DNA of 64,000 bases from Lingula anatina. Taxonomy: Eukaryota > Animalia > Brachiopoda. The notes under the pieces were generated by a model. The model was not told the origin of the DNA and made no database searches. It was given only the letters and a program-made list of their open reading frames with translations. The stretch covers positions 5,960,954-6,024,953 of the forward strand of contig CM120644.1 of NCBI GenBank assembly GCA_051362555.1, written 5' to 3'. The number at the start of each line of letters is the position of its first letter. The stretch's first letter is position 1. Both the position numbers and the translations under genes were made by a program. Positions 3,216 through 44,945 of the stretch are shown here, one piece after another.

Positions 3216-3702
3216 ATGTCTTGTTTCATGATGATCAAAAAGTTCAGGGTTTACCAGCCCAGGAGAAACCACCTACGAATAATCCAATCAAGGCGGTGGA
3301 TAACACAAGCTGTGCAACCAACCCAGAATTTAACCAAGGCCACCCAACACCAATTTGAGACTGGATCTTTGTCATGTGCGCAACCTGTGCGCTGGGTTAC
3401 GAACAAATGTGTACCTTTGAAAAAAGTAAGTGGCGGTAAAAAAAAATACAACTGATGCGGTCAACCGCATCGGGAATATTCTTCTCGAGATTGACAGTCA
3501 GTGGGTACTTTATGTTACACCATGCATCAACAAATAGGTGGATAGATAAATAATAAATGATAATATATTGATATAAAGAAATTCAAAGTTATGAGGTAGT
3601 TTCGCTAATGTGCATCCACTCATTCATGAATCGATCTATATAGCTGTTATCTATACCCGCGATAGATATACTTTATAAGAAATTATTATACCCGCTTTTT
3701 AA

Positions 3703-3760
<58 letters not shown>

Positions 3761-4774
3761 GATTTGAATCAATAAAGGGGCATATTTCAGATGCCTGATG
3801 ATTATCAGCTGGTGACTGGGTCTAAACACTGGAAACGGAAAATGCGCACGGTTTTTAAGTGTTTAGATGCCAATTGTGACGGCTACCTGACAAGAGACGA
3901 CTATGAGACCACTGGTAGACGGGCTGCCGGGTACTTAGGTCTAAATGGTAACTTGATCAGTTTGTTAATCGACTAATATTTAACTTCACCCTTTGTTAAC
4001 AGAACAATGCATCGTATGGGATAAATTTTAGCATCTAATACATGGTAGAAAATAATAAATTTAAATTCAACTACAGTATATCTGCAATTGAGTAGTAGTA
4101 GTTAAGTAAATGTTTTTGATAAGTTAGGAGTAGGCATACGTGTTATAATTGGTTAATACATACGCATTCAAATGACGCTAATATTGTCAATTTCATGTAC
4201 CCAGGTAGATGCATAGGTTACAATGAATAAACTTTAAATGCATTAACCAGGCGAGGTTAACTTTTTAAGGGGGCGAGTCACATTGAAACCATGCTTTAAA
4301 CAATACTGCACGTATGGCCAGGTGATATTTTAAAAGATAAACAGTGCATCATATAACTTTTTTCCTTTAATAGGTGATCAGTGTGAGGATGTCGTAAAGC
4401 AGTTCCTTTATGCCTGGGATCATCTTGACAAGGACATAGCTGACAAAGTAGCAGAAGAGGAGTATGTGCACATTTTATTCACAATCGTAAACCAAGACTC
4501 ATTCCGGCGAGATTTGTATCCAACGCGCTTAGCCACGAATTTCAACTTAGTAGACACGGATGGCAACGGTCTTATCTCCAAAGAAGAACATGCAGCTTTT
4601 TACAAGGGCATGCGCATTTCTGCTGAGGAGGCGAACAGAGCTTTCTACTTGATGGACAGCAATGGAGATGGCTTCATATCGCTTGAAGATTGTGCGCAAG
4701 TGTATCTGGAGTTTGTTTTTACTGAGGATCCAAATAATAAATACAATGAGATCCTCGGTCCCCTTGTTGACTAA
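3216..4774 (+). CDS. EF-hand SCP/luciferin-binding-protein-like gene 1 (most divergent, opposite orientation); exons 3216-3425, 3791-3947, 4374-4774; 255 aa
   Basis: Donors AAA|gtaagt and G|gtaact, acceptors tttcag and taatag. Phases 0 and 1 give a continuous ORF. EF loops DANCDGYLTRDD, DTDGNGLISKEE, DSNGDGFISLED; WKRKMRT motif; C-terminus FTEDPNNKYNEILGPLVD. Confidence 0.88.
3706..3758. repeat. (TA)n microsatellite in gene 1 intron 1
   Basis: Pure TA run. Other (TA)n runs at 10554-10621, 18580-18654, 21391-21446 and 28147-28323. Confidence 0.95.
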
Positions 4775-5385
4775 GGATTGAGGTTAACTGGGAAAGCAGC
4801 TTGGGCCAGATACATTTACATGTACAATATAACGCTCTTGGCTGCGATAGTTGACGACTACGGCTAGTCTACAGCAAAAGTTTCTGTTACTTATCACCGG
4901 AGATACAATGTTTCCTCACAAGTCTCAGCTGTGCACCAATTAACACACTCTGTTTATGTAATGCTGTCATGTAAAACATTTATGAAATATTTCAGAACCA
5001 GACGCTACTGCATGACGATAAGTTGGGAAAGCGACCACCGTTAGGATCGATATACCAGAGTCATAAAATGTTACTTATCCCGTTTTAATATGTGCAGTAA
5101 AAGTCGTTCTTAACTATTTAAAATTCGACGGATTGTATTATGTGAGGCGATCGTGAATATTATGTACAGCGACCGAAAATGTTTCACTGTGGCCAGCGAC
5201 TATTAACCCTGACGCAATTAAAACCTATGTATTTGCAACCCTTACTCCTGGTGCTTTTAGAATATTTTAAAATAATTATTTGTATCGCCCAAGGATGACA
5301 TCTCTCATGATGGTGTTCTTGAGTTTTCCAATAATTCCATTTTACAATACACTGATAAAAATGAAACAAATGAAAGCAGTTGAAA

Positions 5386-5442
5386 TATAATATAATATAA
5401 TATAATATAATATAATATAATATAATATAATATAATATAATA
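5386..5442. repeat. (TATAA)n microsatellite
   Basis: Pentanucleotide run. Similar runs at ~41003-41044 and 60097-60152. Confidence 0.9.
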
Positions 5443-5742
5443 TAGCATTCAGAGTCTACGTCCATGATAACAGTCATACAAGTTACTAATTGCCTGTAAA
5501 ACATAATCTTTAGAATACCCTCCTAATATCTTAACAGAATTTCTTATTTGAAACGGTGGCAATAAAATGTAATCTTTTAACATACGCAATGCTAATTCCT
5601 GAAGACTGAACATTTCAAGCTTAAGATGTAATGGTGTTGTGTTTATTAAAGTAGTAAATGAACTAGAAAATCATTCACAGGGCCAGTGCAGGCAATAATC
5701 ACCATCCTTTTCATTTATTAATTATTTATCAAACTATAGGTC

Positions 5743-5779
<37 letters not shown>

Positions 5780-6138
5780 AGATAATACAAAGTTAACCGT
5801 CAACCAAGCGAACATTACATGCAGTCAGGCTGCATTCATGTATCATTTAACATACGGAGAGAGAGGTCTCTCCGAAAAAGGGTCCTATATATATTCATAT
5901 ACGTGTGTGTGTGTGTGTGTGTGTGTGATTAATGCACGCCGTTTGTGCCATTGCTAATTGTACTATATTGGAGTGGGTGGAAGTAAGTTTAATATGGGAA
6001 AGATTGCGCAGGTTGCCCGAGTCCCGACTGACTGTTAAATATGAATGAGAAGCCAGAGAGGCGCGACAGGGCAGTTAGAGATACAAGCAAACAACGTTTG
6101 TACAATGCCACATTTTACTGATAAAATAGGTATAAATA

Positions 6139-7523
6139 CACACACTGGACAAAAGAAGGGTCACCCCCTAACTTAGAGTAATAAAAGTAGGCAGATCTTG
6201 GGTACTTATTATGCCTGGTCTACTTATAATGTGACTAATGAGTATAAAACCGCTAAACCATTGAATTGTATTGTTGGTCTTGTACATGTACAGCAAATGT
6301 TATTCCTGTCTTCCTCCAATATGGCAAGATACAGGCAATTATCTAACGGTTATAGGTGCAAGTTATTAACCTGAAGAGGCGGAATATAAGCAATGTCAGA
6401 ATATCGATACAATTGAATTGTTCAGTCAGAACCGTGCAGAGGGTCTGGTCTCGGTATAGAAACACTGGATCAAGAGACAAATTGCCTCTGATGGGTCGTC
6501 CAAGAAAAAATACTGGCCGTGAAGACCGACGACTAATTTTGATGTCCAGGTTGTCAAAGTTCGACACTGCTTATCAGTTGACAACACAGTGGAACAATTT
6601 CACACATAAGAATGTGTCTGTGAAAATTGCTAGGCGTCGGTTACATACTCAGAGAGTGTACAGCAGGGTAACAAGACTGAAACCTCTTATATCGTTACAA
6701 AACAGGCAACGTAGAGTAAACTAGGGTCAACAGGATCTGGAACTGGACAGTTCATGACAATTGGTCCTATATATTTTTCTGATGAGTGTCGCTTTGGTCT
6801 GACCTCTGATGACAGACGGGTATTATGCTGGCAAACTGCTGGTAAAGCATTTGAACCACGTGCACTGAATTTTCGAACCCGGAGCAGCATATTCATCATG
6901 GTGTGGGGCTGCATCAGCATCCATGGCTTGCGCGAATTGATAGTGGTTAATGGAAACATGAATCACTAGAAATATATCGATGTTTTGGAGTCAGGCTTGC
7001 TACCATCTTTTACTAACATGTTTGGTGACAGGAATTATCCATTTGTTAACCAGGATGACAACGCTCCTTGTCACAGGCCCAGAGCAGTTGATGATTGGTT
7101 TGACCAACAGGACATTCGCAGGGTGATGTGGCCTGCATAGAGTCCGGATGCAAACATAATAGAAAATGTGTGGAATGATATGTCAAAACTTTTTACAAAT
7201 GCCCGTCTAACCAGCAGAGAAACTCTGTTATATTCAGTTTTTCATGCTTGGGCCAGCATAAGCCCTGAACGCATCAGACAATTATATGAAACCTTGCTTC
7301 GTAGACTGGCACCTATTATTAGATCACGTGGCTATGCCACTAAGTACTAATTTTGGACTCGAAACTGCATATTTTGATAGAATGTATATTTTGTTCTCAT
7401 TTTGTGATTTTTTGTGAAATTTGATGTTAATAAAATGATACCAGGAGCATATCATTCCACAGTCATTTATCTCCCCCATAGTATTGGCTCAGTAGGGGTG
7501 ACACTTCTTTTGTCCAGTGTGTG
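6139..7523 (+). mobile_element. Tc1-family DNA transposon (DD34E), transposase disrupted
   Basis: ~31-bp TIRs CACACACTGGACAAAAGAAG(G/T)GTCACCCCTA and TA TSD. Motifs GRPRK, FSDECRF, QDDNAPCH, SPDANIIENVW. Stops and frameshifts present. Empty site seen in paralogous spacers (~18870, ~28470). Confidence 0.92.
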
Positions 7524-7678
7524 TAGTACTGTGGTTCCCCACCAAAATCTTAGCATTTGTTCCTTGGCAAATTTCTGAACTATGCTGAAAATTTCATCAA
7601 ACCCGTCCCTACATTTTTGCAGAATGTTGCTAATCAACAGGCAATTACGCCCCTTGGCGGAGGTACACATGTAATCAT

Positions 7679-9170
7679 TTAATCAGCCAGTGAACCGAAT
7701 ACTTCGTTGTATATGTTACTTGGGTCTTCGGTAAAAAAGAATTCGGCTATTGCATGCCCAAATTCGTCTATTGTTATAAAACCATCGTTGTTGTTGTCTA
7801 TCAGGTGGAATGCTTTTTGCGACGCCTCGGCGGAGATGCCTAAGCTATAGAAAAAAACTTTGTACTCCTCACTGGAAATGAGACCATCGCCATTTATGTC
7901 AATGAGAGTAAAAGACATTGATACCACCGTTGAGAAAAACTTCTCCCGGAGGTGTTTTTGGTTACACGACACTCGAACCAGTTCCACGTATTCTTCCTCC
8001 GATACCTTGGAAGCATTTTTTGTAATATATTCCCATTGTCCGATGCGCTGATTTAGAACATGCTCTGCTCTCTCAACTGAAAAACGAGCTGGGGGATTTC
8101 ATACATGTATTTATATTGATATCCACTCATATATAATGCATGTAACTCAGTAGTTATCTTAAAATCAACGCTACGTTGGTCATATTTTTATGACAAGAGT
8201 TTGTTAAAAAATAAACTGACTTTAAAATGAGAGACAGAAAAGAACCCACCAATATTAAACCTTTTCTTTGCAAGGTACAAGGTACAAACATGTACATAAA
8301 TCTGTTTTAGTTTATAAAATAATATAGCTAAAATTGAATTTGCAACATACTTTGCAATATACTTTCCCTTATTTTTATCATTCAACAATTGGGAACAATT
8401 TAACCTACCATCAAGGTCCAAATACTCGGCACAGCGTCTTGCACTTAATATATAATCTTCTTTTGTGATGTAGCCGTCACCGTTTACATCAAAACACTTG
8501 AAATATGTGCGTAATTTCCGCTTCCAGTGTTCAGATCCAGTCAACGGCGGGTAGTCCATTGGAGCCTGAAAGTTGTTCAAATACCAGTACATGTGTACAG
8601 GGAAATCGGATAAAGAAAATATATCGGACATAGAAATAATGCTTGATATATTTAATTAAAAAAGAATCGTATATCGGCGGATGTAACGCAAATAATAGCA
8701 ATATATTCAAACGAATAGTTGTACAATAAAAAAAACAGAAACACTTGGTATATCGATGGCCTCCTGCCGAAACCGAATGGACAGGAACAATAATTTTATA
8801 TCACAAATATATATTGGAGTATTACCTGTTTGTTTTTAGCATTCCCCAGTTCAAACCTTCTTTGAAGTGATATTTACATGTATGTTTACCAAAGCACATC
8901 AGCACACATACGTATATCTGTAACATGAACTCTTTCATTCGCGCTCCTTTTTATTACCTTTTTAAACCGTATCGGTTGGTGTTTTAGTCCTCGGACAGGC
9001 AAACTAAGTGGAGAGAATTTTGGAACGGATTCATGTTGCAAAACATCTTGGTAGTTGACGTAATTCATGTTGCAAAACCTCTTGGAAGTTGACGTTATCC
9101 TTGTTAACCCTTGATACATCGGTTGCATAATTCTTATCAGCCCCCTACTAGCCTGAAAAACTTTAGACAT
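7679..9170 (-). CDS. EF-hand SCP-like gene 2 (subtype A); exons 9170-8958, 8565-8409, 8076-7679; 255 aa
   Basis: Canonical GT/AG and 157-nt exon 2. Leader MSKVFQASRGLIR...PVRGLKHQPIRFKK. Loops DVNGDGYITKED, DINGDGLISSEE, DNNNDGFITIDE. Confidence 0.9.
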
Positions 9171-9298
9171 GGTGACCTCCGTAGAGATCGATATACCTGT
9201 ATCCGAGGCAGAAATGCTCTTTGCTTTAAACATCTTTTAGCACTCATATAAAAAGGTTGACCTATATTTAAACATTACCCCGGTGCACGTGTTATATA

Positions 9299-9303
9299 AC
9301 GTG
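9299..9303. promoter_or_regulatory. Positionally conserved RCGTG (TCACGY on the sense strand) motif ~110-130 bp upstream of the ATG
   Basis: Equivalent sites at 12891, 20549, 24025, 27279, 30137, 34279, 42678 and 45053. Mutated at 37839. Confidence 0.45.
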
Positions 9304-9549
9304 ATGCAATTATGCATTGGTTATAAGTTCGGTTAGTGGAAAATGCAATTGGCTCTATGAACAAACCTTCAGGCTGTTAATGTTTTGTTGTATTAACGGA
9401 ATTGACCACATTCAGAGTAATAAATACAGTATATATCCACACACTAAGAGGAGCTGGTTTTTCAGAATAATCAAACATGAGAAGTATTCCTGTATTGGAT
9501 CTTATTGTATTTTAAAATCACCATAATTTTTTTTTGAGTAAGAAGTAAA

Positions 9550-9815
9550 GTAAGGCGATTCATTTTCTGTTCTCTGTTATGTGCAATTCATTCTTAAAAA
9601 AACAGCGACCAATTTTATCAGATCGGAAAACATAATCTACCGGTAGTTTTATATACTTGACATATCAACTGTCTTCAGGCTTTGTTAAAAAATGATAGAT
9701 GTAAAGTGGGGTGAGCAGTTCAGTGGGCGCCTTTAAATATAGTATAAATTGGCAATCATGTCACGTTTTCAGCTCAAAGATGCCAGTAAAACATTGACAT
9801 GTGCTTTAATATTGA
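9550..9815. repeat. Conserved ~270-bp upstream block repeated before most genes
   Basis: TTCTGTTCTCTGTTATGTGCAATTCAT...CATGTCACGTTTTCAGC...ACATTGACATGTGC also at ~13130, 20790, 24250, 30385 and 34535, and diverged at 27335, 37895 and 40410. Confidence 0.8.
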
Positions 9816-10551
9816 AATTTGATTGTCCGGGTAAATTACCTTTTGCATAAAAATCCTGTATAGTTTAGAATTAGCCATTGGTTTGACAACAGCTTATTGC
9901 TTGTCATTATCATAAAATCTGCGTCGTCAATTACACATCTTTTCTCTTCAATTTACAGTATTTAAAATGATACTCAGGCGGGAAAGGTCATTGATCTCTT
10001 TCCTTTATCAACTACGCAACAGATCAAACTTGAATTGAGTCAATACCTTACCCAGTATGGCGTCATGCATGTTATGCTGCCCTTTCATCAAAACAAGCTA
10101 TCTGCTCGGTGGGATTACCATCAAGAAATAATATTTTCAAAAGTCAAATCGCCGCTATTGTTTTACCTAATCATACATTTTGTTTTTTATGCCCCCCCCC
10201 CCTCTTTAGCCTTGTTTATCAAGACTGCACATACATCCGTACAGTAATTGGGGCAACTCCACAGTCGACATTTGGAATGGCAAAGATAACTCAGAACTAA
10301 AACGGCCAATCAGTGAACCGCTTTGGCTCTCATCGTGCCCTGTAACGTCGCAGGTTAAGTCAAACGTAAACTCAGTGTGAAACAAAATGAAAATAACAGC
10401 ATCTGAAATCATCTTACCAGGAAAGTTCCGGGCTGGCTTAAAAAAAAAAGCGTAGTAATTAAACTAGAAAATCATTCAGAGGGCCAATGCAGACCTTTAC
10501 CAAGGCAAGTCAATAATCACCATCATTTTCATTTATTAATTGTTTATTAAA

Positions 10552-10624
<73 letters not shown>

Positions 10625-10919
10625 TGAGATAATACAATGTACACCGTCGACCAAGCGAAATCTAACATGCACTCAGGCCGCATCTATGTATCATTTAACA
10701 TTCAAAGAGAAAGGTCTTTCCGAACAAGGGTCCTATATATTTATATATGTTTGTGTGTGTATGTGTGTGTTTGTGTGTGTTCGATTAATGCATGCCGTTT
10801 GGGCCATTGCTATTTCTACTATATCGCAGTGGGTATAAGTATAATATGGGAAAGATTGCGCAGGTTACCTGAATTAAATATGAATGAGAAGCCAAAGAGG
10901 CACGACGGGGCAGTTAGAG

Positions 10920-11090
10920 TATCATACCCCAGAACAAATTTTGAAGGACGACCGCGGGCTCATCATGCCGTGTTCTCACTGATACTCCGAAATGCGATCT
11001 GACACACACCTTAAAAATGGGTAGTGTGGTCCGATATACCGGTTAATTCAGGATCCTTAAGTACCGAGTCTGGTAGATGGGTAGGCCTGG
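10920..11090. other. ~170-bp insertion in the spacer downstream of gene 3
   Basis: The paralogous sites read GTTAGAGACGATGCAAGC contiguously (18811-18830). Here ~170 bp of GC-richer sequence intervenes. Confidence 0.55.
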
Positions 11091-11308
11091 AGACGATGCA
11101 AGCAAACGATGTTTGTGCAATGCCGCATTTTACTGATAAAATAGGTATAAATATAATATTCTGGTTCCCCACCAAAGCCTTAGCACTTGCTCCTTGGCAA
11201 ATTTCTGAACTATGCTGAAAATTTCATCAAACCCGTCCCTACATTTTTGCAAAATGTTGCTAATCAACAGGCATTTAGGCTCCTTGGCGGAGGTACACAT
11301 GTAATCAC

Positions 11309-12770
11309 TTAATCAGCCAGTGCACCGAATACTTCGTTGTATATGTTACTTGGGTCTTCGGTAAAAAAGAATTCGGCTATTGCATGCCCAAATTCGTCTA
11401 CTGTTATAAAACCATCGTTGTTGTTGTCTATCAGGTGGAATGCTTTTTGCGACGCCTCGGCGGAGAGGCCTAAGCTATAGAAATAAGCTTTGTACTCCTC
11501 ACTGGAAATGAGACCATCGCCATTTATGTCAGTGACAGTAAAAGACATTGATACCACAGCCAAAAAAAACTCCTCCCGAAAGTGTTTTTGGTTACACAAC
11601 ACTTGAACCATTTCCACGTATTCTTCCTCCGATACCTTGGAAGCATTTTTCGTCATATATTCCCATTGCCTGATGCGCTGATTTAGAACATGCTCTGTTC
11701 TCTCATCTGAAAAACGAGCATGGTGATTTCATACATGTATTTATATTGATATCCACTCATATATAATGCATGTAACTCAGTAGTTATCTTAAAATCAACG
11801 CTACGTTGGTCCTTTTCATGACAAGTGTATGTTAAAAATACATTGATTTAAAAATGAGACAGAGAGAGAGAAAGAACATACCGATATAAAACTTTTTCCT
11901 TGCAAGATACAAGGTGCAAACATGTACATAAATATGTTTTAGTTCATAAAATAAAGTAGTTAAAATTGAATTTGCAACATACTTTGCAATATACTTTCCC
12001 TTATTTTTATTATTCAACAATCGGTACCAAATTAGCCTACCATCAAGGTCCAAATACTCGGCACAGCGTCTTGCACTTAATATATAATCTTCTTTTGTGA
12101 TGTAGCCGTCACCGTTTACATCAAAACACTTGAAATATGTGCGTACTTTCCGCTTCCAGAGATCAGATCCAGTCAACGGCGGGTAGTCCATTGGAGCCTG
12201 AAAGTTGTTCAAATACCAGTTCATGTGTACATGGAAATCGGATATAGAAAATATATCGGACATAGAAATAATGCTTGATATATTCAATTAAAAAAGAATC
12301 GTATATCGGCGGATGTAACGCAAATAATCGCAATATATTCAAACGAATAGTTGTACAATAAAAAACAGAAACACGCGGTATATCGATGGCCTCCTGCCGA
12401 AACCAAATGGACAGGAACAACAATTTTTGATCAGAAATATATTTTGGAGTATTACCTGCTTGTTTTTAGCATTCCCCAGTTCAAACCTTCTTTGAAGTGA
12501 TATTTATGTTTACCACAGTACGTTAGCACACATATGTATATCTGATACCTGAACTATTTCATTTGCGCTCCTTTTTATTACCTTTTTAAACTGTATCGGT
12601 TGGTGTTTTAGTCCTCGGACAGGCAAACTAAGTGGAGAGAATTTTGTAACGGATTCATGTTGCAAAACCTTCTCCACTCTCTTGGTAGTTGACGTAATCC
12701 TTGTTAACCCTTGACCCCTCGGTTGCATAATTCTTATCAAACCTTTACTAGCCTGGAAAACTTTAGTCAT
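11309..12770 (-). CDS. EF-hand SCP-like gene 3 (subtype A); exons 12770-12582, 12197-12041, 11706-11309; 247 aa
   Basis: Same exon structure with the ORF intact. SDLWKRKVRTYF resembles the N-terminus of polychaete (Nereis) SCP, SDLWVQKMKTYF. Confidence 0.9.
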
Positions 12771-14209
12771 TTTGACCGCCGTAGAGATCAATATTCCTGT
12801 GTCCGTGGCAGAGATGCTATTTCCTTTTAACGTCTTTTAGCACTCATAAAAAGGTCGACCTATATTTAAACAGGGTGCACGTGTTATATAGCGTGATACT
12901 AGTATGCATTGGTTATTAGTTCGGTTAGTGGAAAATGCAATTGACTCTATGAACAAACCTTCTGCTAATGTTTTATTGTATTAAGAAAACTGACCACTTT
13001 CAGAGTAGTGATAACAGTATGTGCCCACACACTAAGATAAGCTGGTTGTTCAGAATAATCAAAGAGAAGTACACTGTACCCCTTGGATCTTATTGTATTT
13101 TAAAATCACCATTTTTTTACTGAGTAAGAAGTAAAGTTAGGTGATACCTTTTTTGTTCTCTGTTATGTGCAATTCATGATTAAAAAACAGCGGCAAATTA
13201 TGTCAGATGGTAAAATATAATGTGCCGGTAGTGTTATATACTTGACAACTCAACCGTCTTCACTATTTATTGAAAAAAAGATACAAGTGGGGTGAGCAGT
13301 TCAGTGAGCGCCTTTAAATATAATATAAATTAGCAATCATGTCACGTTTTCAGCACAAAGATGCCAGTACAACATTGACATGTGCATTAATATTTACAAT
13401 TGATTGTCCGGGCAAATTTCCTTTGCATAAAAATCTGGTATAGTTTAGAATTAGCCATTGGTTTGACAACAGCTTTTTGCTTGTCATTATCATAAAATCT
13501 GCGCCTTCAATTAAACTTCTTTTCTCTCCAATTTAAAGTCTTTAAATGATACTCAGGGGGGAAAGGTCAATAGATCAAGCTTGAATTGAGTCAGTATCTT
13601 ACCCAGTATGGCGTCATGCATGTCATGCTGCCCTTTTATCAAAACAAGCTATCTGCTCGTTGGGATGTTCATTTTTTCAAAAGTCAAATCGCCGCTATTA
13701 TTTTACCTAATCATACATTTTGTTTTTTGTGTCCTCCTCTTTGGCCTTGTTTATCAAGACTGTACATACATCCTTACAGAACCTGGGGCAACTCCACATT
13801 TGACATTTGGAATGGCAAAGATTACTTACAACTAAAACGGACAATTAGTGAACCGCTTTGGCTCTCATCGTGCTCTGTAAGGACGCAGGTGAAGTCAAAC
13901 GTAAACTCAGTGTGAAACAGAATGAAAATAACAGCATCTGAAATCAGCTTACCAGAAAAATACAGGGCTTGCTTATAAAAAAAGCGTAGTAAATAAACTA
14001 GAAAACCATTCAGAGGGCCAATGCAGACCTTTACCAAGGCAAGTCAATAATCACCATCGTTTTCATTTATTAATTATTTATTAAACCATATATTTGAGAT
14101 AATACAATGTACACCGTCGACCAAGCGAAATCTAACATGCAGTCAGGCCCCATTCATGTATCATTTAACATACGGAGAGAAAGGTCTTTCCGAAAAGCAG
14201 TTATATATA

Positions 14210-18576: not shown

Positions 18577-18579
<3 letters not shown>
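14210..18579. mobile_element. 4.4-kb insertion into a (TA)n site, unassigned, probably a decayed TA-targeting element
   Basis: Flanks are contiguous in the paralogous spacers (5880-5930, 10720-10790, 28270-28370). The right end CAGTGGTCGGAATAAT only weakly matches the left end. No recognisable ORF. Confidence 0.5.
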
Positions 18580-18657
<78 letters not shown>

Positions 18658-19022
18658 AGTATGTGTGTCTGTGGTTGATGAATGCACGCCGTTTGTGCCA
18701 TTGCTACTTTTACTATATTGTAGTGGTTGGAAGTAAGTATAATATGGGAAAGATTGCGCAGGTTACCTGAATTAAATATGAATGAGAAGCCAGAAAGGCA
18801 CGACAGGGCAGTTAGAGACGATGCAAGCAAACGGCGTTTGTGCAAGCCGCATTTTACTGATAAAATAGGTATAAATAGCACTCTGGTTCCCCACCAAAAT
18901 CTTAGTATTTGTTCCTTGGCAAATATCTGAACTATGTTAAAAATTTCATCAAACTCGTCCCTACATTTTGCGTAATGTTTATAATCGACAGGCAAATTAG
19001 GCTCCTTGGCGGTTGTAATAAC

Positions 19023-32440: not shown

Positions 32441-33025
32441 TATAGTGAATAAAATACTATTATATTCAAGTATGGCCCCCAGGTGCATTATTCGACAGGT
32501 GTTCAAGTTATTCCTTTAGTAAATGCAGTATGGGGGATATCGCCTGTTGATACCCTGAATTGGGTCAACTTGCAGTGACCCATCTCCACCGCGTCCATTG
32601 TAAGATTGTTTTTAACATGTTCAGACTAACTTACCTATTATAATATGTAACAAATTCAACTAAAATACATTGATTTTACGTCATTAATGATACATTTTGC
32701 TTCAAAAGAAAAAAAAAGTCATGTAATGGATGCTAATAATAATGATTCCAATATACCTCGTCTCCAAATATGTACTTTACAGCATTTTTTTAAAATAATT
32801 ATTTTCATTGGAACAAAGCTATACGGTTTAAAGCAATGTGCATTAAAAGCTCAATAAATCTACCACAGTAGTACAACCCATCCCAAATTCTTGACAAATA
32901 TTATAATAAGGCTACACTCATCAGATTATCTTCATGATCGAATAGTAGAAATGACATTCCTGGCTGAACTTGACATTCAGAAGGCATGTATTATATCAAA
33001 GCTGACTCATCATTTAAGTCGGTAT

Positions 33026-34158: not shown

Positions 34159-36043
34159 GTTGACAAGCCTCAAGATATACTTCCGAGTCAGAAAAATATC
34201 TGCCTTCCCGCTTTAGCGTGTGCAATAAAAGACGTTCTTTACTATTCACACGTCGACGGATTGTATTATGTAAGATGAACGTGAGTATTATGTACAGGGA
34301 CCGGTAGTGTTACAATGAGGCTACACACGACCGATCCATTGATTTACGAGCACGACTAACCCTAACATAATTAAAACGTATTTGCAACCATTCTTTTAAT
34401 GGAAAAATTGCGTTGGCTTCAGTTTGGTAAGTGGAAAAATTACAATTGACCCTTAAGGCAGTTAAATTTTTCCTAGGAAAATCGACCACATAAAACTATG
34501 TACATGTATAAATAAAAGAAAACGCAGTAGTAAAGCAAAGTGATCCATTTTCTGTTCTCTGTTACGTGCAATTCATGCTTAAAAAACAGCGATGAATTTT
34601 GTCAGATCGGAAAACATAATGTACCGGTAGTGTTATGTACTTGACAAATCAACTGTCTTCAGGCTTTGTTAAAAAATGATAGATGTAAAGTGGGTTGAGC
34701 AGTTCAGTGGGCGCCTTTAAATGTAATATAAATTGGCGACCATGTCACGTTTTCAGCACAAAGATGCCAGTACAACATTGACATGTGCTTTAATATTTAA
34801 ATTTGTTTAAATGACTTGGTTAAAAATCAGTTATATTTTGAGATACGTACCTCTATCATTTTAAGTGGGAAAAGAACATATTTTACCTTTTATTCACGTT
34901 TCAGAAAAGTTTACTGGATCAATCATTCTCCTATATAGTGCATACAATACTATTGCATTCAAGTATGGCCCCCAGGTGCATTATTTGAAAGGTGTTCGAG
35001 TTATACCTTAAGCATGTGCAGTATGGGTGGGGGTGGGGGGGGCGTATCGCCTTTTGATACCCTGGATTGGGCCTACTTGCAATGACCCACCTCCACCACG
35101 TCCATTGTGAGATTGTATTGTTATGTTCAGGCTAGGTCTAGTTGGTCTTGCCGCTGGTCTAGTTAACTTACTTATTATAATATTTGGAAACAGCATTGGT
35201 ATATATGTTTCGTGCCGTTTTAAGAAATAATTATATCTCAGTGAAACATCTCAGCGCACTTAACAACTGTTATCACATTATAAAATCAATAATGACAATA
35301 ACTTTAATCTAATGAAATCGAAATAAAAGCAAAAAGGCCTAAAATAAGTAGTGTTCTAATAAAAGTTTTATTTTTCTCTTGAAGCTACATGTATCAAAGG
35401 TGCCGTAAAGATTGAAGGACGTGGTCCTTTTTGAAAAGTTCGGATCATAAGATCATAAAATGCAATCACAGCTCCTCCCCCCCCCCCCATGTGATTTAGA
35501 ACACTCCTGTTTCTTTTGACTTAAGAAGAATTTGTCCACTTTTAAAAATGATTTTTAATATGAGCAAATGACGTATTGTGTATCAACCAACGTCAACTCG
35601 GCTAAAACATAATGTGTCAAGGATTCAGCAGGCGAGCTGCTACATACACTGTATCATCAACATATCATCAGACTGTCCTTCGTCACCGAAGATGTCTGAC
35701 TGAGTTGATTGAGTCTGAGGCGTGTCTCAGACAGGCTCTAAGACTTGGTTTTTATCCCTAGACCGATCTTACAGGATCAGTCCCTCTCCAAGGGGTCCCT
35801 CGCTAAATTGCTTTCAGCTTAAGTGGCTTAGATGTCTGGGACGCCCACTAAAGTTGCTAAATTATAGTTAATTACACCCTATCAGCCTCAGCAGACGTGA
35901 CAGACATCTAAGACGCCCAAGTTTATTGCAATCAAGCGAGAATCCCCTCGAAGAGTTCGATCCAAATTTGGTACGTAAGGGTCTGGGAATGGTCTCTAAT
36001 GTGGGCTGTAAGACCCGCTTGGGATCTGCAAAAACGCTGACAT

Positions 36044-36141
36044 CCCAGCAGGCAAACGACATTGATTTTACGTTGATTCAACGTTGATCCACCAAAATTA
36101 ACATTGATTCAACGGTGAATCAATGTCGTTTGTCTGCTGGG
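36044..36141. mobile_element. 98-bp MITE with CCCAGCA termini
   Basis: CCCAGCAGGCAAACGACATTGATT...AATCAATGTCGTTTGTCTGCTGGG flanked by AT/AT. Absent at the paralogous site ~25630. Confidence 0.75.
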
Positions 36142-36261
36142 ATGTGTTGCATTAGAAATTGATTCAGCTGGATGTTAAATGTCGAAGATCATGTGTACGT
36201 TGATGCTGATCTTTAAAGGTTGACAAAGTTTCATCAAAAACAAGCCATCTCTCTTTGTATT

Positions 36262-37730
36262 TTAATCAGCCAGTGGTCCGAATATTCCGCTGTATGTGTT
36301 ATTTGGGTCCTCGGTAAAAAAGAATTCGGCAAAAGATTGTGCAAATTCGTCAATGGTTATGAAACCATCTTTGTCGGTGTCAACCAGGTCGAATAATTTC
36401 TGTGCTTCTTCTTCGGGGATGTTTGAGCTATAACACGAAACCTTGTATTCTTCTCTAGAAATGAGGCCATCGCTATCAAGATCCACAGCAGTAAATTGCA
36501 TAGACAAATGCCTGGGGAAAACCTCCTGTCGGTAGCTTCTCTGATTAAACAGCACTATTGCCGATTTTAGACATTCTTCCTCTGATACTTTGGAAGTATC
36601 TTCTGAACTTTTAGAAATACTTTCCCATACAGCAACACGCTGATTCAGCAAATGCTCTGCCCTCTCATCTAAAAGAAGCCAGAATTGTATTGTATATGAA
36701 TCTTAAGATATAATATGTTATATGAATCTTTAAAATGCTTTATATGCTTTTCTCAAAGGAACAAGAGAGAATCGAATATGAACTGAATGTCAATTGTACG
36801 TAGCGATAATTTATGCTTTACTCTGTGAGACCATGTTGCAAAATGAAAACTTACAATAGATGAATGCGATTGCCTATTACACAATTCTTCATTTACCAGT
36901 TTGTTTTAACCAATAGCCTACCGTCAAGGTCTAAATACTCTGCACAGCGTTTCGCACTTATCACATAGTCTTCCTTTGTGATGTAGCCGTCGCCGTTTAC
37001 ATCCAAATTCCTGAAAAGTGTGCGCATCTTCCGTCTCCAGTGATCAGATCCAGTCACCTGCGGGTAGTCCACTGGAGCCTGAAAGGAGTTCAAGTACATG
37101 GAAACTGGACATATCCATAGTTCCAAATTGAAAAGCGTTGTAATCTGCATTGGAACATGATACTCACTCCCCATGTACCAAAACCGAATCCCAATTTATT
37201 CAATGTTTTTTGTGTATTTAAAGGTCAAAAACACACGCGGTATATCGATAAAAGCAAGTTAAAATGACAGTTTGTACCAAAGAGATACCGTAGGCTACGA
37301 TCCATCTGCTGACTTTTCATCATATTTGTATTAACAAGCAACAATGCAGTCGCCTTGTCGTTTATATTAAAACAGAATACATGCTACAAAACCGAAATCA
37401 ATCCCAATAAAAAGAACATTCCTCGGATCTAATCTTGTTTATAAATAAAAAGTCAAGTTATTTAAGTAACAAACTGCTGCCAATATATTATACCCTTTGG
37501 TATTCATTAAGAGAAGGAACAGCGTGTCTTTCAATCTTTCTCACCTTTCTAAACTGTATCGCTTGGTTTTTTAAACCCCGTGCAGAAAGGATAAGTAAAG
37601 AGATTATTGGACCTAATCCATGTTGCTCAACTTTACCAAATCTCTGGGGAGATGACATAACTCTCGTTACCCTCTGACATGGGTTTATGATTTTTAGTAA
37701 TCCCCCACTTGCCTGGAAAACCTTAGACAT
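36262..37730 (-). CDS. EF-hand SCP-like gene 9 (subtype C); exons 37730-37545, 37078-36922, 36668-36262; 249 aa
   Basis: Intact ORF and canonical splice sites. Loops DVNGDGYITKED, DLDSDGLISREE, DTDKDGFITIDE. Confidence 0.9.
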
Positions 37731-38364
37731 GCTGACCACCTTTATGATTGATAAAATGTCTGCCTTCCTTTTTAAACGCGTGTTATGGAAGACGTACTGT
37801 GTTATTCAAAAGTTGACAGACTGCATGGTATAAGATAAACGTAAGTATTACGTACAGCTAAGGACAGTATTACTAGAACATTCTTTTTAGGCGTGGGACC
37901 AATATTGTCAGATCAGAAAATATATAGTAACAGAATGCTCAGCGTTAAAGCGATTCAAGTATCGACTGTCTTCACTCCTCGTTTAAAAAAAGATAGATGT
38001 GTAGCGGGTGAGTGGTTCACTGAGCGTCTTTAAATATAGTATAAATTAGTTATCATGTCACGTTCTCAGCACAAAGATACTAGTACAACATTGGCATGTG
38101 TGGTAATCAATGACATTAAGAAAGAAACAAGTATAGTAAAGATTGATGGCCATTTGTTGTGCATTTTGATTACTTTGATAAAAACATTTTAAAACCATCA
38201 TTTAAAATTAAAAAATTGCATCAGTTTGGTAAAAATATTTCAATTGCCCTAAAAAACTCAAGGCTGTTAATTTTTGCTAGAACAGTTAACGAAATTGGTG
38301 TAATTTATAAATAAAACAGACCGACTGGTTGAATATAACTTTTAGCTGCCATAAAACACATGTA

Positions 38365-40106
38365 CACACACTGGACAATAGAAGTGTCACCCCTACTGAA
38401 CCAATACTATGGGGGAGATAAATGACTGTGGAATGATATGCTCCTGGTATCATTTTATTAACATCAACTTTCACAAAAAATCATAAAATGAGAACAAAAT
38501 ATGAACATTCTACCAAAATATGCAGTTCAAGTCCAAAATTAGTACTTAGTGGCATAGCCACGTGATCTAATAATAGGTGCCAGTCTACGAGGCAAGGATT
38601 CATATAATTGTCTGATGCGTTAAGGGCTTATGCTGGCCCAAGTATGAAACACTGAAGATAACAGAGTTTCTCTGCTGGTCAGACGGGCATTTGTCAAAAG
38701 TTTTGACATATTATTCCACACATTTTCTATTATGTTTGCATCTGGACTCTGGGTAGGCCACATCACCCTGCGAATGTCCTGTTGGTCAAACCAATCATCA
38801 ACTGCTCTGGGCCTGTGACAAGGGGCATTGTCATCCTGGTGAACAAATGGATAATTCCTGTCACCAAACATGTTAGTAATAGATGGTAGCAAGCCTGCCT
38901 CCAAAACATCGATATATTTCTAGTTATTCATGTTTCCATCACCCGCTATCAATTCGCCCACGCCATGGATGCTGATGCAGCCCCACACCATGATGAATAT
39001 GCTGCTCCGGGTTCGAAAATTCAGTGCATGTGGTTCAAATGCTTTACCAGCAGTTCGCCAGCATCGTACCCGTCTGTCATCAGAGGTAAGACCAAAGCGA
39101 CACTCATCAGAAAAAAATATATAGGACCAATTGTCATGGACTGTCCAGTTCCAAATCCTGTTGACCCTAGTTCACTCTACGTTGCCTGTTTTGTAACGAT
39201 ATAAGAGGTTTCAGTCTTGCCACCCTGCTGTACACTCTATGAGCATGTAACCGACGCCTAGCAATTTTCACAGACACATTCTTATGTGTGAAATTGTTCC
39301 ACTGTGTTGTCAACTGACAAGCAGTGTCGAACTTTGACACCTGGACATAAAAATCAGTCCGACCGGATGGCCTTGTGGTTAGAGTGTCCGCCTCCGGAGC
39401 GGGAGGACGTGGGTTCAAAACCCGTCCGGGGACATACCAGTCCTTTATAAACGGTACCTGCTGTCTCCCCGCTTGGCACTCAGCACTAAGGGGTTGAAGC
39501 AGGGACCTGGTCAGGCAGTGCAGAAATGTTATATTAGCTATGAGCGCCTAATATGGCAGCCGAGCTGTATGCTCCCCAGGGAGGTGAGACCGTCTACGGA
39601 GTGCACCAGTGTAAAAATGACCAGGCTTCCTTGACGTGAATATTCATATATGTAATTGTATAACTTCAACCTTCGGGTTGCGATTCTCCAATAAAGATTA
39701 TTATATTATTATTATATAGTCGTCGGTCTTCACGGCCAGTAGTTTTTCTTGGACGACCCATCAGAGGCAATTTGTCTCTTGACCCAGTGTTTCTATACCG
39801 AGACCAGACCCTCTGCACGGTTCTGACTGAACAATTCAATTGTATCGATATTCTGATATTGCTTATATTCCACCTCTTCAGGTTAATAACTTGCACCTAT
39901 AACCGTTAGATAATTACCTGTATCTTGCCATATTGGAGGAAGACAGGAATAACATTTGCTGTACATGTACAAGACCAACAATGGTATAGCGGTTTTATAC
40001 TCATTTTTCACATTATAAGTAGAGCAGGCATTAGTGTAAGTGCCCAAGATCTGCCTACTTTTATTACTCTGAGTTAGGGGGTGACACTTCTATTGTCCAG
40101 TGTGTG
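38365..40106 (-). mobile_element. Second copy of the same Tc1 element, interrupted by a SINE
   Basis: Same TIRs with TA TSD. The D-to-E spacing counts to 34 residues. Shares inactivating TAG codons with the 6139 copy. Empty site at ~27815. Confidence 0.92.
39360..39716 (+). mobile_element. tRNA-derived SINE (Meta-SINE-like central domain) nested in the Tc1 copy
   Basis: A box TGGCCTTGTGG and B box GGTTCAAAACC. Central AAACGGTACCTGCTGTCTCCCCGCTTGGCACTCAGCAC. AATAAA followed by a (TTA)n tail. Absent from the other Tc1 copy. Confidence 0.8.
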
Positions 40107-41299
40107 TATGATGAAAAAAAAAAAAAAAAAAAAAATGAATCTAGTCTATATACATACTGTATTAATAGAGAGTCGCCACTACTTAAAAACTTATCAACTT
40201 GTTCTGGCCTTATCAATGATATCCAGTCATTGGATTTACGCCTGGGATTGAAGATAAAATTGAGCAGAGATACTGATGTGATAGTGTAGATTGCAAGGCG
40301 AGATTTATCAACAATAATTATCATCAGGACACGGTCATTTTATTTGATATCAAGGTAGTCTGATTGACTTTGTAAATATAGTTTAAAAAGCCATGTTTGT
40401 AGAAAGAAATGACCAATTTTGTTAGATCGAAAATTATAAAGTGACACCGTGCGCAGCGTGTGAAAGATTGGCGTATTGAAAGCGCTACCAATTCACTGTT
40501 TGTTGAAAAAGATATAGGGGTAGCGGGCGAGCGGTTCACTGAGCATCCTTAACAACAGCTTTACAACCTTGTCACGTAATCAGCAAAAAAGGGTAACTGT
40601 TTAACAATAACATGCCCCTTACTCTGTATGCATCCTTCTAAGATATACCAAATACTGAATAATATGATTATATTTGTGGCACCCGATGATTTCTACTCTC
40701 ACGATGTTCATCGTGTGTTGTTTTCCAATAGTTTCCCTGTTACAAAATGATGCCATTTATATTACTGTAAAAAAGAAAGATTTAAAATGGAAATATAGTT
40801 TAAAAGGAAATATAAAGAAAGTGGCGTGAGTGCTATTCTGTGTACTTTAAAATGTATTTAACAGTAAATGTTGAAGGTCATTTGTGGCACCCTAGGTTGT
40901 TTTGCCTCACAATGGTCATCGTGAGCTGTTTTCCACTCATTTAATTCCTACAATGTATTTAAGCATCTACCAGTATATCACAAAAATGAAGAAAAAAAAT
41001 GATAATATAATATAATATAATATAATATAATATAATATAATATAGATTATCGTCCAGGGTCTCTTCAAAGTTGGTACCATACAGTTAGATCACATTAAAC
41101 TTACACGATTGCCGATGAAACATTGAGTAAATCATGTAATCTAGTCTCCTTAATATTATCATTCAATCTATTACTTGTGACGCAATTTCTTATTCTAGTT
41201 GTCGACAATCAAGAGAAGCATCTTTCTTCCTTTGCTGATTTCATTTTAGAAGAATGAAACTTAAGTACGTTGTTTTAATCAACGCAGAAACAAAACAGT

Positions 41300-42438
41300 T
41301 TAATCAGCCAGTTTACCAAATAACACGTCGTATATGTTATTCGGGTCTTCGGTTAAAAAGAATTCTGTCCAAGCATGTGCAAATTCGTCAATGGATATTA
41401 AACCATCTTTGTTGGTGTCCATCACGTCAAATATTTTTTTCGACTCATCCACAGGGATGTGTAAGCCATAGAAAAAAGCTTTATGTTCTTCGTTGGAAAT
41501 GAGTCCATCGCCATCAATGTCCATGGCATCAAAATCCATTGATATCACCATGGGTAGAAAATCCTGTCGAAAGCTGTTTCGGTTGAACACCGGTGGAGCG
41601 GAGTTGATATATTCTTCTTCTGATACCTTAGAAGGATCTTCTGTACCCTTAGGAATAATTTCCCACATTGCAATACGCTGATTCAAAATATGTTGTGCTC
41701 TCTCATCTAAAAGAAACGCTTCAAGATATAGTATCCATTTGTATCCAATAAACGTAATTTATCGAGAAATACGTCATAATAGTTTTGCATAAAGACTGCA
41801 TTTGTACCTGTTCAATTTTCCGCGTATTTATTTAAGTTGAGAGCGAGGAAGTAAGAAAAGCGTATATTAAAACTTTTCTTGTAATTACGTTTCAACAATG
41901 CATTAATTGAAGTTGTTTGCACCAATTGAAGCCTACCCCAAATTCAAAGCATCTGTAGATGAATGTTTTAGTTTTAATCACAAGTGTATTTTTTATCATT
42001 TAGCCTACCATTAAGGTCCAAAAACTGGGCACAACGTCTTGCTGTAATAGCGTAGTCATCTTTTGTAATGTAGCCGTCAGAGTTTGCGTCCAAGCATCTG
42101 AAAGTGGTGCGCATCTTCCTCCTCCAGTGATGAGCTCCAGTCAGCAGTGGGTACTCCATTGGGTCCTGAAATGCACAAAAGTGATCTGAAAGGTCACAAA
42201 TGACACCAGTTGATGTAGTGTATATTTGGTATGAGGATTTTTGTCAACTTACCTTTTTAAACTGTATCGTTTGAATTGTAAGTGTCCGGACAGGTAATCT
42301 AAGATGATAAATTTTCGCAACTGGTTCATTTCGCACACCCTTCCCTACTGTCTTCCTAACCGGTAAAACCCTTGTTAAGCCATGACAGGTTTGGGCAATC
42401 TTCAGCAATCCTCTACTAGCCTGGAAAACCTTAGACAT
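41300..42438 (-). CDS. EF-hand SCP-like gene 10; exons 42438-42253, 42165-42009, 41706-41300; 249 aa
   Basis: Intact ORF with an 87-nt intron 1 (AAG|gtaagt). Loops DANSDGYITKDD, DIDGDGLISNEE, DTNKDGLISIDE. Confidence 0.9.
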
Positions 42439-42500
42439 GTTGGCCGACGTAAAATGTATACATTTTATCCAGTAAATGTCCTTCTTTCTTAAAGTACATT

Positions 42501-42612
42501 TCCAGCAAAAACGTCACGTTCGGATCACGTGGCTAGCACGTTGCTACCGAACCACATTATAACGTCATAGCAACGTGCTGGCCACGTGATCCAAACGTGA
42601 GTGTTTGCTGGG
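42501..42612. mobile_element. ~112-bp palindromic MITE just upstream of the gene 10 start codon
   Basis: CCAGCAAA..TCACGTTCGGATCACGTGGCTAGCACGTTGCTA is inverted at the other end (TAGCAACGTGCTGGCCACGTGATCCAAACGTGA..TTTGCTGG). Confidence 0.7.
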
Positions 42613-43308
42613 TTTATTGTTGAAAGGAAATTCAACCCTTGCATATTCAAGTTGATACCTTGTATAATGTAGAGTGAACGTGAGACGACTAACAATAATG
42701 CATTTTATTAGGCAAAGCAAATCTTATACACTGAATACTGAGCGCAACCGAACATAATTGATTTTGAATAAATTATTATTATTATTATTATTGTATTTAA
42801 ACCCAATAAGAAAAAATACACAAGTTAAAGTTTTGGAAAAGTCTCGTGTTTTAAATAAATAAAATATAAATTCATTCCGACCCTGTTTACAGAGAGAAGT
42901 CGCTCGTTAAACGACATAAAAATTTGTCAGGCCTTACTTGTCGGCATTCAGTGATCCAAAGAGTGAAGTTTGAGGTTAACAGAGAATGTATATTTTGGGA
43001 AGCATACTGTTTAACAAGGGTGCAAACTCCTGCGCAACAAAAGAAATGAATACATGAAACCATACTTTTATCCAGTTTTAGTGCATATCATATTATAGTC
43101 CTATGTTGAATGCAACCAACAAATCCGTTGTCAGGCGATCTGACTCCACCAAAGTCATTGACTGTGTATTATAATTAATATGATGATTGTGATAAGGTTT
43201 ATTGTATTTTTTTCTTTCTTTGCATGGCACATCAATCCAAGACATGGGACACGGGGATGTTTAAGGAAGCAAACGTGTCCCTCCTTCCATTTTAGTACTA
43301 CTACATGT

Positions 43309-43310
43309 AT

Positions 43311-43390
<80 letters not shown>
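43309..43390. repeat. Compound (ACT)n(AAT)n microsatellite
   Basis: Read directly. (AAT)n also at 45148-45207. Confidence 0.9.
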
Positions 43391-43393
<3 letters not shown>

Positions 43394-43548
43394 TAAAACA
43401 GCACGCAAGGCCAACATTGCAAGGTCAACATTGCAAGCCAGTCTGTTGATTATCAATAAAAACACTTTTCATACAACACATTTCTGTTTAAAAAGGTTTA
43501 ATATGAAGACTGCATCGTAAATCGTTTATCAAAGGAGTAGCAGTTGCT

Positions 43549-43615
43549 TTAATCAGCAAATGGATCGAAAACCCATTTGTATACATTGTTTGTGGCCTTG
43601 GTTAGGGGGGAATTC
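43549..43615 (-). pseudogene. Degenerate 3'-end fragment of a further SCP-like copy
   Basis: Minus strand reads EF-(frameshift)-LTKATNNVYKWVFDPFAD*, compared with the paralog EFFLTEDPNNIYDVLFGKLAD*. Confidence 0.6.
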
Positions 43616-43661
43616 AGGCTGAGTGGTTATAATTTGACATGCCTGCTCGCTTAATATTTTG

Positions 43662-44945
43662 TTAATCAGCCAGTGGACCAAAAAAAACGCTATATGCGTT
43701 ATCTTGGTCCTCGGTTAACAAGAATTCCGTCATGGCATGTGCAAATTCGTCAATGGTTATCAAGCCATCTTTGTCGATGTCCATAACGTCAAATATTTTC
43801 TTCGACATTTCCACGGGGATGTTTAAGCTGTAGAAAAAAGCCTTGTGCTCTTCATGGGAAATGATTCCATCTCCATCAATGTCCATGGCATTAAAATCCT
43901 CAGTTATCACCATGGGGAGAAACTCCTGTCGGAAGCTGTGTTGGTTAAACACCGTTAGTCCACCATTAACGTAGTCGTCCTCTGATATTTTAGAAGCATC
44001 TGCGCCCTTAGGAATAATTCCCCAGATTCGAGTGCGTTGGTTGAGAACACACTGTGTTCTTTCATCTAAAAGAAGCGAAGGGTTATTTCAGATTGATGTT
44101 GGAAGTTCTTGGAACCAAATGTAAACACCCGTAGTTTTCATTAAATTCACGCTAAGTCGGCAATAATTTTTTCACGAGTGTATTATATCGTGATTTAAAA
44201 ATGTAAGAGTGCGTGGAAGAGAGAGCGAGAGAGAGAGATGAAAAGCAATATAACATATAGCAAACTTATAACAGATCAGTGTATTCCTTTTTTATAATAT
44301 TAATTCAATAGTTAAACTAATTAACCCACCGTTAAGGCCCAAATACTGGGCACAGCGTTTCGCACTTATCACGAAGTCTTCTTTTGAAACGTAGCCGTCA
44401 CCGTTTGTGTCGAAACATCTGAACGTCGTACGTAACTTCCGTCTCCAGTGATCAGACCCAGTCACCGGCGGGTAGTCCAATGGAGCCTGAGATGTGCACA
44501 AGTACAAGGAAATTGGATTTAGAAAATAGAAAAAAAAGTCATATATAGAAATTAACTGAAGAAAATAGTGGAACGAATTAGCGCGTGGGAATGATTTAAG
44601 AGATTAGAAATAAGTCTCAGTAAGCCCTTACGTTCAAAATTTAATTCAATGATTGTAGTCAGAACATGTAAGATTTTTTAAATCTGAAATATTAGGAGCA
44701 CTATAGTGATTCCGGTACATGTCTGTAACATCGATTTATATATGGAATAGGACTGTTTCTATCTTTACCTTTTTGAACTGTATCGCTCGATGTTTTACTC
44801 CTCTGACGGGTAAACTAAGTGGAGAAAATTTGGGATCGAGTCCATGTTGCACATCCTTCCAAAGTGCCCGGTTAACTGGCATGTCCCTTACTAAGCCGCG
44901 GCATGCTCGGATAACATTTGGTAATCTTCTACTAACCCCTGACAT
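43662..44945 (-). CDS. EF-hand SCP-like gene 11; exons 44945-44769, 44486-44330, 44065-43662; 245 aa
   Basis: Intact ORF. Leader MSGVSRRLPNVIRACRG...PVRGVKHRAIQFKK. Loops DTNGDGYVSKED, DIDGDGIISHEE, DIDKDGLITIDE. Confidence 0.88.

Follow-up and report, generated by a model that had tools for sequence, protein, structure and literature searches.

We analysed a 64,000-nucleotide window of the genome of the brachiopod Lingula anatina (contig CM120644.1 of assembly GCA_051362555.1, positions 5,960,954 to 6,024,953), in which eleven paralogous genes encode EF-hand proteins resembling sarcoplasmic calcium-binding protein (SCP), each with a separate leader exon upstream. Our reading, to which we give a probability of about 0.45, is that the products of the eight genes with an intact leader are imported into the mitochondrial matrix and act there as three-site Ca2+/Mg2+ buffers. 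Judged from the sequences, import of the leader-bearing products is probable, because the leaders are basic and acid-poor and in 22 of 26 cases carry an arginine 12 residues ahead of the core. If the proteins are imported, buffering has a somewhat better than even chance of being their main role; it is taken as the default function because the core is acidic and keeps three intact sites. Positions below are those of the window.

Structure of the array

A search with the first gene and explicit models for all copies place eleven three-exon genes between positions 3216 and 44945, in agreement with the original prediction, and profile searches of the window turned up no other coding exon. The first gene, g1 (3216-4774), lies on the plus strand, and g2 to g11 (7679-44945) follow head-to-tail on the minus strand. 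Since g1 also falls outside the clade formed by the other ten, the description as a tandem array applies to g2-g11, and the layout is one inverted gene plus ten tandem genes. The cores are 183-187 amino acids long with a mutual identity of 41-89%, and g1 stands furthest from the rest, with a core 41-47% identical to those of the other ten.

The gene structure is strongly conserved. Exon 2 measures 157 nt in all eleven genes, as had been claimed, and a CAG acceptor lies exactly 157 nt ahead of the exon 2 donor in all ten minus-strand genes; exon 3 ranges from 395 to 407 nt. Phases 0 and 1 had been proposed for every gene: intron 2 is indeed in phase 1 throughout, and phase 0 of intron 1 applies to the eight genes with an open leader and to g4. 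A conserved 5' flank lies directly upstream of exon 1 in all eleven genes.

Eight genes have an open, in-frame exon 1, which encodes 59 to 71 amino acids. These are g1 (plus strand; exon 1 3216-3425, exon 2 3791-3947, beginning with ATG, exon 3 4374-4774; leader of 70 residues) and, on the minus strand, g2 (9170-8958, 8565-8409 and 8076-7679; 71 residues), g3 (12770-12582, 12197-12041 and 11706-11309; 63), g5 (23904-23713, 23584-23428 and 23098-22692; 64), g7 (30008-29820, 29440-29284 and 29019-28625; 63), g9 (37730-37545, 37078-36922 and 36668-36262; 62), g10 (42438-42253, 42165-42009 and 41706-41300; 62) and g11 (44945-44769, 44486-44330 and 44065-43662; 59). A short additional copy of the end of exon 3 is found just past the g11 stop (43549-43616, minus strand, E 8.6e-5). 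An orphan copy of the family's 5' flank (5033-5238, minus strand, nhmmer E 1.9e-17, repeat family D20) ends just short of the expected ATG, with no adjoining exon match in the profile searches, and from its sequence is likely to be the relic of a deleted twelfth gene.

Constraint on the leader exon

Pooled, the eight open leaders contain 98 K/R and 13 D/E among 514 residues, which bears out the predicted scarcity of acidic residues. They have no in-frame stop, against 1 to 7 stops in each of the other frames. Neutral simulation on the leaders' own tree kept all seven minus-strand frames open in 0 of 1500 runs (mean 1.4), and the pooled ratio of nonsynonymous to synonymous differences (pN/pS) of 0.64 was reached in 1.4% of neutral simulations. 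The pairwise ratios of nonsynonymous to synonymous substitution rates (dN/dS) were 0.38-0.78 among the seven open minus-strand leaders. From the frame conservation and pN/pS we infer that the leader is coding and under constraint, and we read it as translated and kept by selection. A non-coding 5' exon was rejected on frame conservation, the neutral simulations and pN/pS. A Pfam scan of two leaders gave no match, and a query of the ESM Atlas with the leader returned no usable match and was uninformative.

The claim that every gene has such an exon 1 stands for these eight and fails for three others. In g4 (minus strand; exon 1 20422-20234, exon 2 19890-19734, exon 3 19420-19023) the leader contains an in-frame TGA, and a consensus GT donor lies 18 nt past the ATG, whose use would yield a leaderless protein of 190 amino acids. 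In the leader of g6 (minus strand; 27158-26972, 26557-26401 and 26174-25768) codon 3 is a stop and there is an insertion of 1 nt; a downstream in-frame ATG would give a leader of 38 amino acids. In g8 (minus strand; 34158-34025, 33914-33758 and 33432-33026) a 46-nt deletion shifts the frame and removes the conserved arginine, and this copy is likely a pseudogene or a leaderless allele. The array shows leader loss in progress, by a new donor in g4 and by frameshifts in g6 and g8, and it offers a system to study how duplicates change compartment. The open leader of g2 has undergone a 10-nt deletion compensated by a 34-nt tandem duplication.

The leader as a candidate mitochondrial presequence

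Matrix presequences are described as 10 to 70 amino acids long, amphipathic, rich in Ser and Thr and free of acidic residues, with the mitochondrial processing peptidase (MPP) cutting after an arginine at -2 or -3 (PMC12895284). All eight open leaders of the window have a net charge of +9 to +12 and zero to three D/E, the first of which occurs at residue 21 or later. About 5% of random stop-free 63-mers meet the charge and acid-free criteria, and 0.2% do so once the arginine site is added, at thresholds that were set after the data had been inspected.

The leaders counted in the family number 26, eight in the window and 18 on other scaffolds, and are 28 to 92 amino acids long. An arginine at position -12 from the exon end is found in 8/8 window leaders and in 14/18 dispersed paralogs; the latter count becomes 14/22 with the inclusion of four RefSeq paralogs that were excluded from the 18 and carry extensions of at least 20 amino acids that are not leader-like (P0021, P0026, P0137 and P0140), and since the paralogs share descent the 22 arginines are not independent events. 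Mostly accompanied by a hydrophobic residue at -10, the arginine is also present in four leaders of 28-30 amino acids from the sister clade, and it holds its position whether the leader is 28 or 86 amino acids long. A fixed arginine near the end of the leader combined with a free upstream length is what would be expected of a processing site. The proposed P-V-R-G-L-K motif is exact only in g2, g3 and g6; what is invariant in the eight open leaders is the arginine at -12 with the hydrophobic residue at -10.

An acid-free stretch over the first 25 residues with at least three K/R is seen in 19 of the 26 leaders and in 11 of 240 other fetched proteins, the latter being mostly acidic EF-hand proteins. 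The helical moment exceeds the shuffle median in 22/26 leaders, with modest amphipathicity (p<0.05 in 5/26 with an 11-residue window and in 7/26 with an 18-residue window). In the AlphaFold model of the g3 protein the predicted local distance difference test score (pLDDT) is below 50 over residues 1-55, so that the order boundary at residue 55/56 adjoins the R-3 cut predicted after residue 54. The coding constraint, the arginine site anchored at the C-terminal end and the disorder ending near the predicted cut give indirect support to the presequence reading.

Two other kinds of processing were considered. A signal peptide was rejected, as no hydrophobic N-terminal stretch of that kind was found in the leaders. 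A second cut by the mitochondrial intermediate peptidase (MIP) fits the spacing and was ranked under the R-2/R-3 cut, because position -5 is mostly Gln and not the Thr/Ser/Gly of the octapeptide motif (PMC8835746). Two leaders of 82-86 amino acids (P0135 and P0144) show a visible internal duplication of about 22 amino acids, and their sequences suggest that long leaders may have grown by repeating an amphipathic unit.

The same composition could also serve a translated leader with no part in import, namely a polybasic tail binding membranes or nucleic acids, or a basic peptide that folds back on the acidic core. Basic amphiphilic helices are the classic target of EF-hand proteins such as calmodulin, the core carries a net charge of -11 to -17, and leaders of 60-90 amino acids are at the upper end of the presequence range. 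We nevertheless consider this alternative improbable: AlphaFold docks none of residues 1-55 onto the core; the length varies from 28 to 92 amino acids with only the arginine/hydrophobic site fixed, which is easier to square with the site of a protease than with a surface for binding; and the K-K/R-x-K/R pattern of a nuclear localisation signal is missing in 25 of the 26 leaders and present in one. In addition, no searched accession prefix or core peptide motif occurs in the Lingula shell proteome tables (PMC13425148), a result that weighs against secretion into the shell and not against an intracellular role.

Fold and calcium-binding sites

The core was modelled by AlphaFold from a 15-sequence alignment with pLDDT >90. 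Its best structural matches, obtained with Foldseek and a second aligner, are tied between the Ca2+-regulated coelenterazine-binding protein (CBP) of Renilla (2HQ8, 2HPS; Z 23.2 and root-mean-square deviation 2.3 over 176 residues for the Ca-loaded form) and the SCP of Nereis (2SCP; Z 22.8, deviation 2.0 over 171 residues). Weaker matches are juvenile hormone (JH) diol kinase (JHDK, Z 21.0), Pinctada SCP (19.4), calexcitin (16-17), photoproteins (12-14) and okadaic-acid-binding protein (Z 13.3). Nereis SCP is also the best full-length sequence match of exon 3 in the PDB (E 5.5e-16). A single-sequence fold of a short-leader paralog had a mean pLDDT of 51 and was not used. Compact, with four EF hands and eight helices and a length inside the usual range of about 175-195 amino acids, the modelled core supports membership of the array proteins in the SCP-type EF-hand superfamily, which includes SCP, calexcitin, CBP and the photoproteins, and so sustains the original assignment to SCP/luciferin-binding-protein-like genes.

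The assignment of EF1, EF3 and EF4 as kept and EF2 as inactive was likewise upheld by the alignment. All eleven genes keep intact EF3 and EF4 loops; EF1 has Asp at position 12 and, at position 5, Asp in nine genes, Asn in g6 and Ala in g8; the EF2 loop is degenerate and lacks the liganding pattern. Photoproteins end in a C-terminal Pro. The last residue of the array proteins is Asp, not Pro, in 11/11.

The tie between CBP and SCP also bears on function, as the imported proteins could be Ca2+-gated carriers of small hydrophobic ligands, or enzymes that modify them, like Renilla CBP, the okadaic-acid-binding protein of sponges and the JHDK of insects, and their expansion would diversify the pocket. 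We hold this to be possible and rather unlikely. The structural neighbourhood (CBP, JHDK, okadaic-acid-binding protein), the number of diverged copies (42 or more) and their weak expression in the RNA runs speak for it. Against it, identity to CBP is only 24-28%, Lingula is not known to be luminous, and the model lies nearer to Ca-loaded apo CBP (Z 23.2) than to the ligand-bound form (16.8), a difference in which AlphaFold bias is possible. The literature adds two points in its favour: luciferin-binding-protein genes expand tandemly under positive selection in octocorals (PMC13401004), and clytin2, the one member of this fold known from mitochondria, is a ligand-binding protein (PMC4043110).

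Expansion of the family in Lingula

A profile of the eight open leaders searched against longer proteins gave six matches, all of them L. anatina RefSeq models, which is weak evidence for absence of the leader elsewhere. With the full-length profile, 25 of 31 matches were from Lingula and the best other animal had E 2e-19; a search of 50% clusters was dominated by multi-EF-hand repeats. Counted from RefSeq proteins, some of which may be alleles, the family comprises at least 42 Lingula members on 16 scaffolds and was found only in Lingula in the searches made. Eleven are on two scaffolds matching the array and 31 elsewhere; of the dispersed ones 18 have a basic leader, four another extension of at least 20 amino acids and nine none or a short one.

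The g10 protein is identical over 249 amino acids to XP_013407533.1. The g3 protein agrees with XP_013402651.1 in 184/184 core and 62/63 leader residues, and the counterpart of g2 (XP_013402629.1) has the same 71-residue leader and differs by a few residues. Leaders match at 62/64 positions between g5 and XP_013402552.1 and at 57/59 between g11 and XP_013407534.1. RefSeq, whose models are automatic, therefore predicts the same splice from exon 1 to exon 2 for these five genes. The closest model to g9 is XP_013402563.1 (core 169/187), and in the counterpart of g4 (XP_013402815.1, 190 amino acids) the first six residues are joined to exon 2 via the early donor. The RefSeq entries named 'sarcoplasmic calcium-binding protein(-like)' and 'luciferin-binding protein-like' are the same genes or alleles, with automatic names and no visible targeting annotation.

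In a tree of 55 cores, which included no named SCP, CBP or photoprotein and had long outgroup branches, the Lingula sequences form one clade (98/91), apart from those of insects, Owenia and Macrostomum. The group with leaders of 28-30 amino acids is sister to the long-leader group (95/98), and g2-g11 are one clade (100/98) that leaves g1 outside. The history that we propose is that a single ancestor in the Lingula lineage acquired a short leader of about 28 amino acids, that a subclade extended it to 50-90 amino acids, and that the family spread by birth-and-death duplication, g2-g11 having arisen in a single local tandem burst.

Among the relatives, the SCP-like proteins P0147 of Gryllus (GLH11705.1) and P0061 of Glossina have N-terminal extensions that start basic and acid-poor, and the large Atlas clusters that come nearest consist of SCP-like proteins from arthropods, 208 and 296 amino acids long. 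An older mitochondrial branch that includes insect SCP-like relatives is possible on these sequences.

RNA reads and a possible leaderless product

Raw reads of seven RNA runs with the same species label were mapped to positions 25600-45100 (X1, X4, X7 and X9) and 3100-23099 (X7, X8, X2 and X5); between 6 and 30% of each run was read, and the tissues are unspecified. The junction between exons 2 and 3 of g11 was found in five reads, the exon 1 bins of g1 and g2 reach 0.2-0.7x in X7 and X8, and g7 has faint depth in X1. The RNA-seq check proposed for the junction between exons 1 and 2 found none among the joins listed for the seven runs at their low depth, the g5 junction lying outside both stretches.

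Two joins connect different genes. Five reads (26174/36922, GT-AG) join a g9-like exon 2 to a g6-like exon 3, and twelve (23028/19737) join a g4-like exon 2 to a g5-like exon 3. Other individuals probably carry hybrid alleles or further paralogs that give these joins, which suggest copy-number or gene-conversion polymorphism.

The missing junction is what would be seen if most of the product were an ordinary cytosolic SCP-like protein, made from leader-skipping transcripts or started at a Met in exon 2, with the leader form minor or decaying. In six of the eleven genes (g1, g2, g3, g4, g7 and g10) the first or third codon of exon 2 is an in-frame Met, several RefSeq models start there, and g4 has switched to a leaderless form. 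We find this alternative very doubtful, given that g5, g9 and g11 lack a Met close to where exon 2 begins, that the conserved 5' flank stands immediately before exon 1 in all eleven genes and that the leaders show purifying selection.

Besides the limits attached above to the leader comparisons, namely thresholds chosen after inspection, shared descent, the four excluded paralogs, the acidic control proteins and the modest amphipathicity, several observations weigh against import and buffering. The leader is broken in three of the eleven genes, and the excess of changes at codon position 3 in the leaders is borderline (p 0.05). RefSeq models g1 from exon 2 without a leader (XP_013402616.1). 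No read joins exons 1 and 2 among the joins listed, and depth over the genes is mostly <2x, low for a bulk buffer. Finally, cores that are 41-89% identical, with dN/dS of 0.2-0.6 (0.98 for g2/g3), have diverged more than a generic buffer would seem to require.

Proposed route and comparison with known proteins

In the reading that we prefer, matrix import followed by buffering, three exons would be joined with the leader in frame with the core, as seen in the sequence and matched by RefSeq models, and the basic, acid-poor and modestly amphipathic leader would engage the TOM/TIM23 route, as presequences generally do. MPP would cut two to three residues past the arginine at -12, so that the mature protein would keep about nine residues of the leader, and the acidic core is predicted to fold like Nereis SCP or Renilla CBP and to bind Ca2+ at EF1, EF3 and EF4. 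Cytosolic forms could also arise from g4, through its new donor, and from the copies whose exon 2 has a Met.

SCP is known as an abundant, leaderless cytosolic protein of muscle. The Lingula proteins share with Nereis SCP the fold, 27% identity, the kept EF1/3/4 and the degenerate EF2; unlike it, they are encoded by many diverged genes with a leader exon of 59-71 amino acids, weakly expressed in the runs examined. The pattern of a leaderless soluble SCP is found only in forms such as g4, whereas eight of the eleven genes have a constrained leader. From Renilla CBP they differ in sequence and in having an N-terminal leader; the likeness is one of fold and, with octocoral genes of this type, of tandem expansion (PMC13401004). 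They resemble the calexcitin/JHDK group in fold at 21-26% identity, and the literature searched describes no leader in that group.

The closest precedent is clytin2, a photoprotein that carries an N-terminal leader of 30-50 amino acids and is mitochondrial in Clytia eggs; its authors report finding none in other proteins of the aequorin family (PMC4043110). It belongs to the same structural superfamily and has likewise gained an N-terminal leader. It is, however, a single hydrozoan photoprotein gene whose leader is not on its own exon, whereas Lingula has a separate leader exon and dozens of non-photoprotein genes with 17-21% identity to photoproteins, and the two leaders are likely of independent origin. 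The view that mitochondria are an unusual compartment for this family is therefore right in general, with clytin2 as a published exception.

Neither the fold nor the family is new, the gene models are already public, and mitochondrial targeting within the fold has been published for clytin2. The apparent novelty is that dozens of SCP-fold genes have expanded lineage-wide together with a presequence-like exon whose function has been lost repeatedly. In the literature searched, in which subscription journals were mostly uncovered, we found neither the Lingula expansion nor its leaders described, and no paper on an SCP with mitochondrial targeting or a calexcitin with a mitochondrial N-terminal extension; the words 'sarcoplasmic' and 'luciferin' did not occur in the searchable text and supplement of the Lingula genome paper (PMC4595640).

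Known buffers fail to explain the measured Ca2+ buffering of mitochondria, and the identity of the remainder needs work, according to a 2023 review (PMC11550887). If our reading is correct, these genes would encode soluble EF-hand proteins of the matrix with three sites each, a family occurring in nature and a concrete protein buffer that could be studied and moved into cells, in a compartment where such buffers are poorly known. They would also be a second and far larger case, after clytin2, of this fold entering mitochondria. Granules of calcium and phosphorus have been reported in lingulid cells (PMC3824353). A tie between the array genes and phosphate shell formation is speculation, and no finding here connects the genes to the granules; the broader proposal that Lingula evolved dozens of dedicated matrix EF-hand buffers, a kind of protein that has not been identified in model-animal mitochondria, controlling mitochondrial Ca2+ and phosphate handling, possibly in cells stockpiling Ca- and P-rich granules for the apatite shell, with the leader exon toggling between matrix and cytosol, seems to us improbable as a whole.

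Other elements in the window

Two relics of Tc1/mariner-type transposons (6136-7525, plus strand, between g1 and g2; 38363-40109, minus strand, between g9 and g10; Pfam HTH_Tnp_Tc3_2) are 95-98% alike and in opposite orientation. Within the second copy lies an insertion (39340-39717) which we take to be a tRNA-derived short interspersed element (SINE). It collects about 13,000 strand-specific reads in X1, coming from many genomic copies, with sharp ends near 39372 and 39611, and nearly none in three other runs; these reads could reflect condition-induced SINE transcription. The interval from g7 to g8 contains a foldback element with arms of 384 nt (84%) at 30770-32446. At 51787-51933 there is an inverted repeat of 67 nt, perfect, whose arms are separated by a 13-nt spacer. 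The window also contains three tRNA-Ser(GCT) genes with equal Rfam scores (48251-48334, 50447-50530 and 63337-63418), the first two inside duplicated microsatellite-rich units, and a fourth, weaker tRNA-like match is located at 63886-63954.

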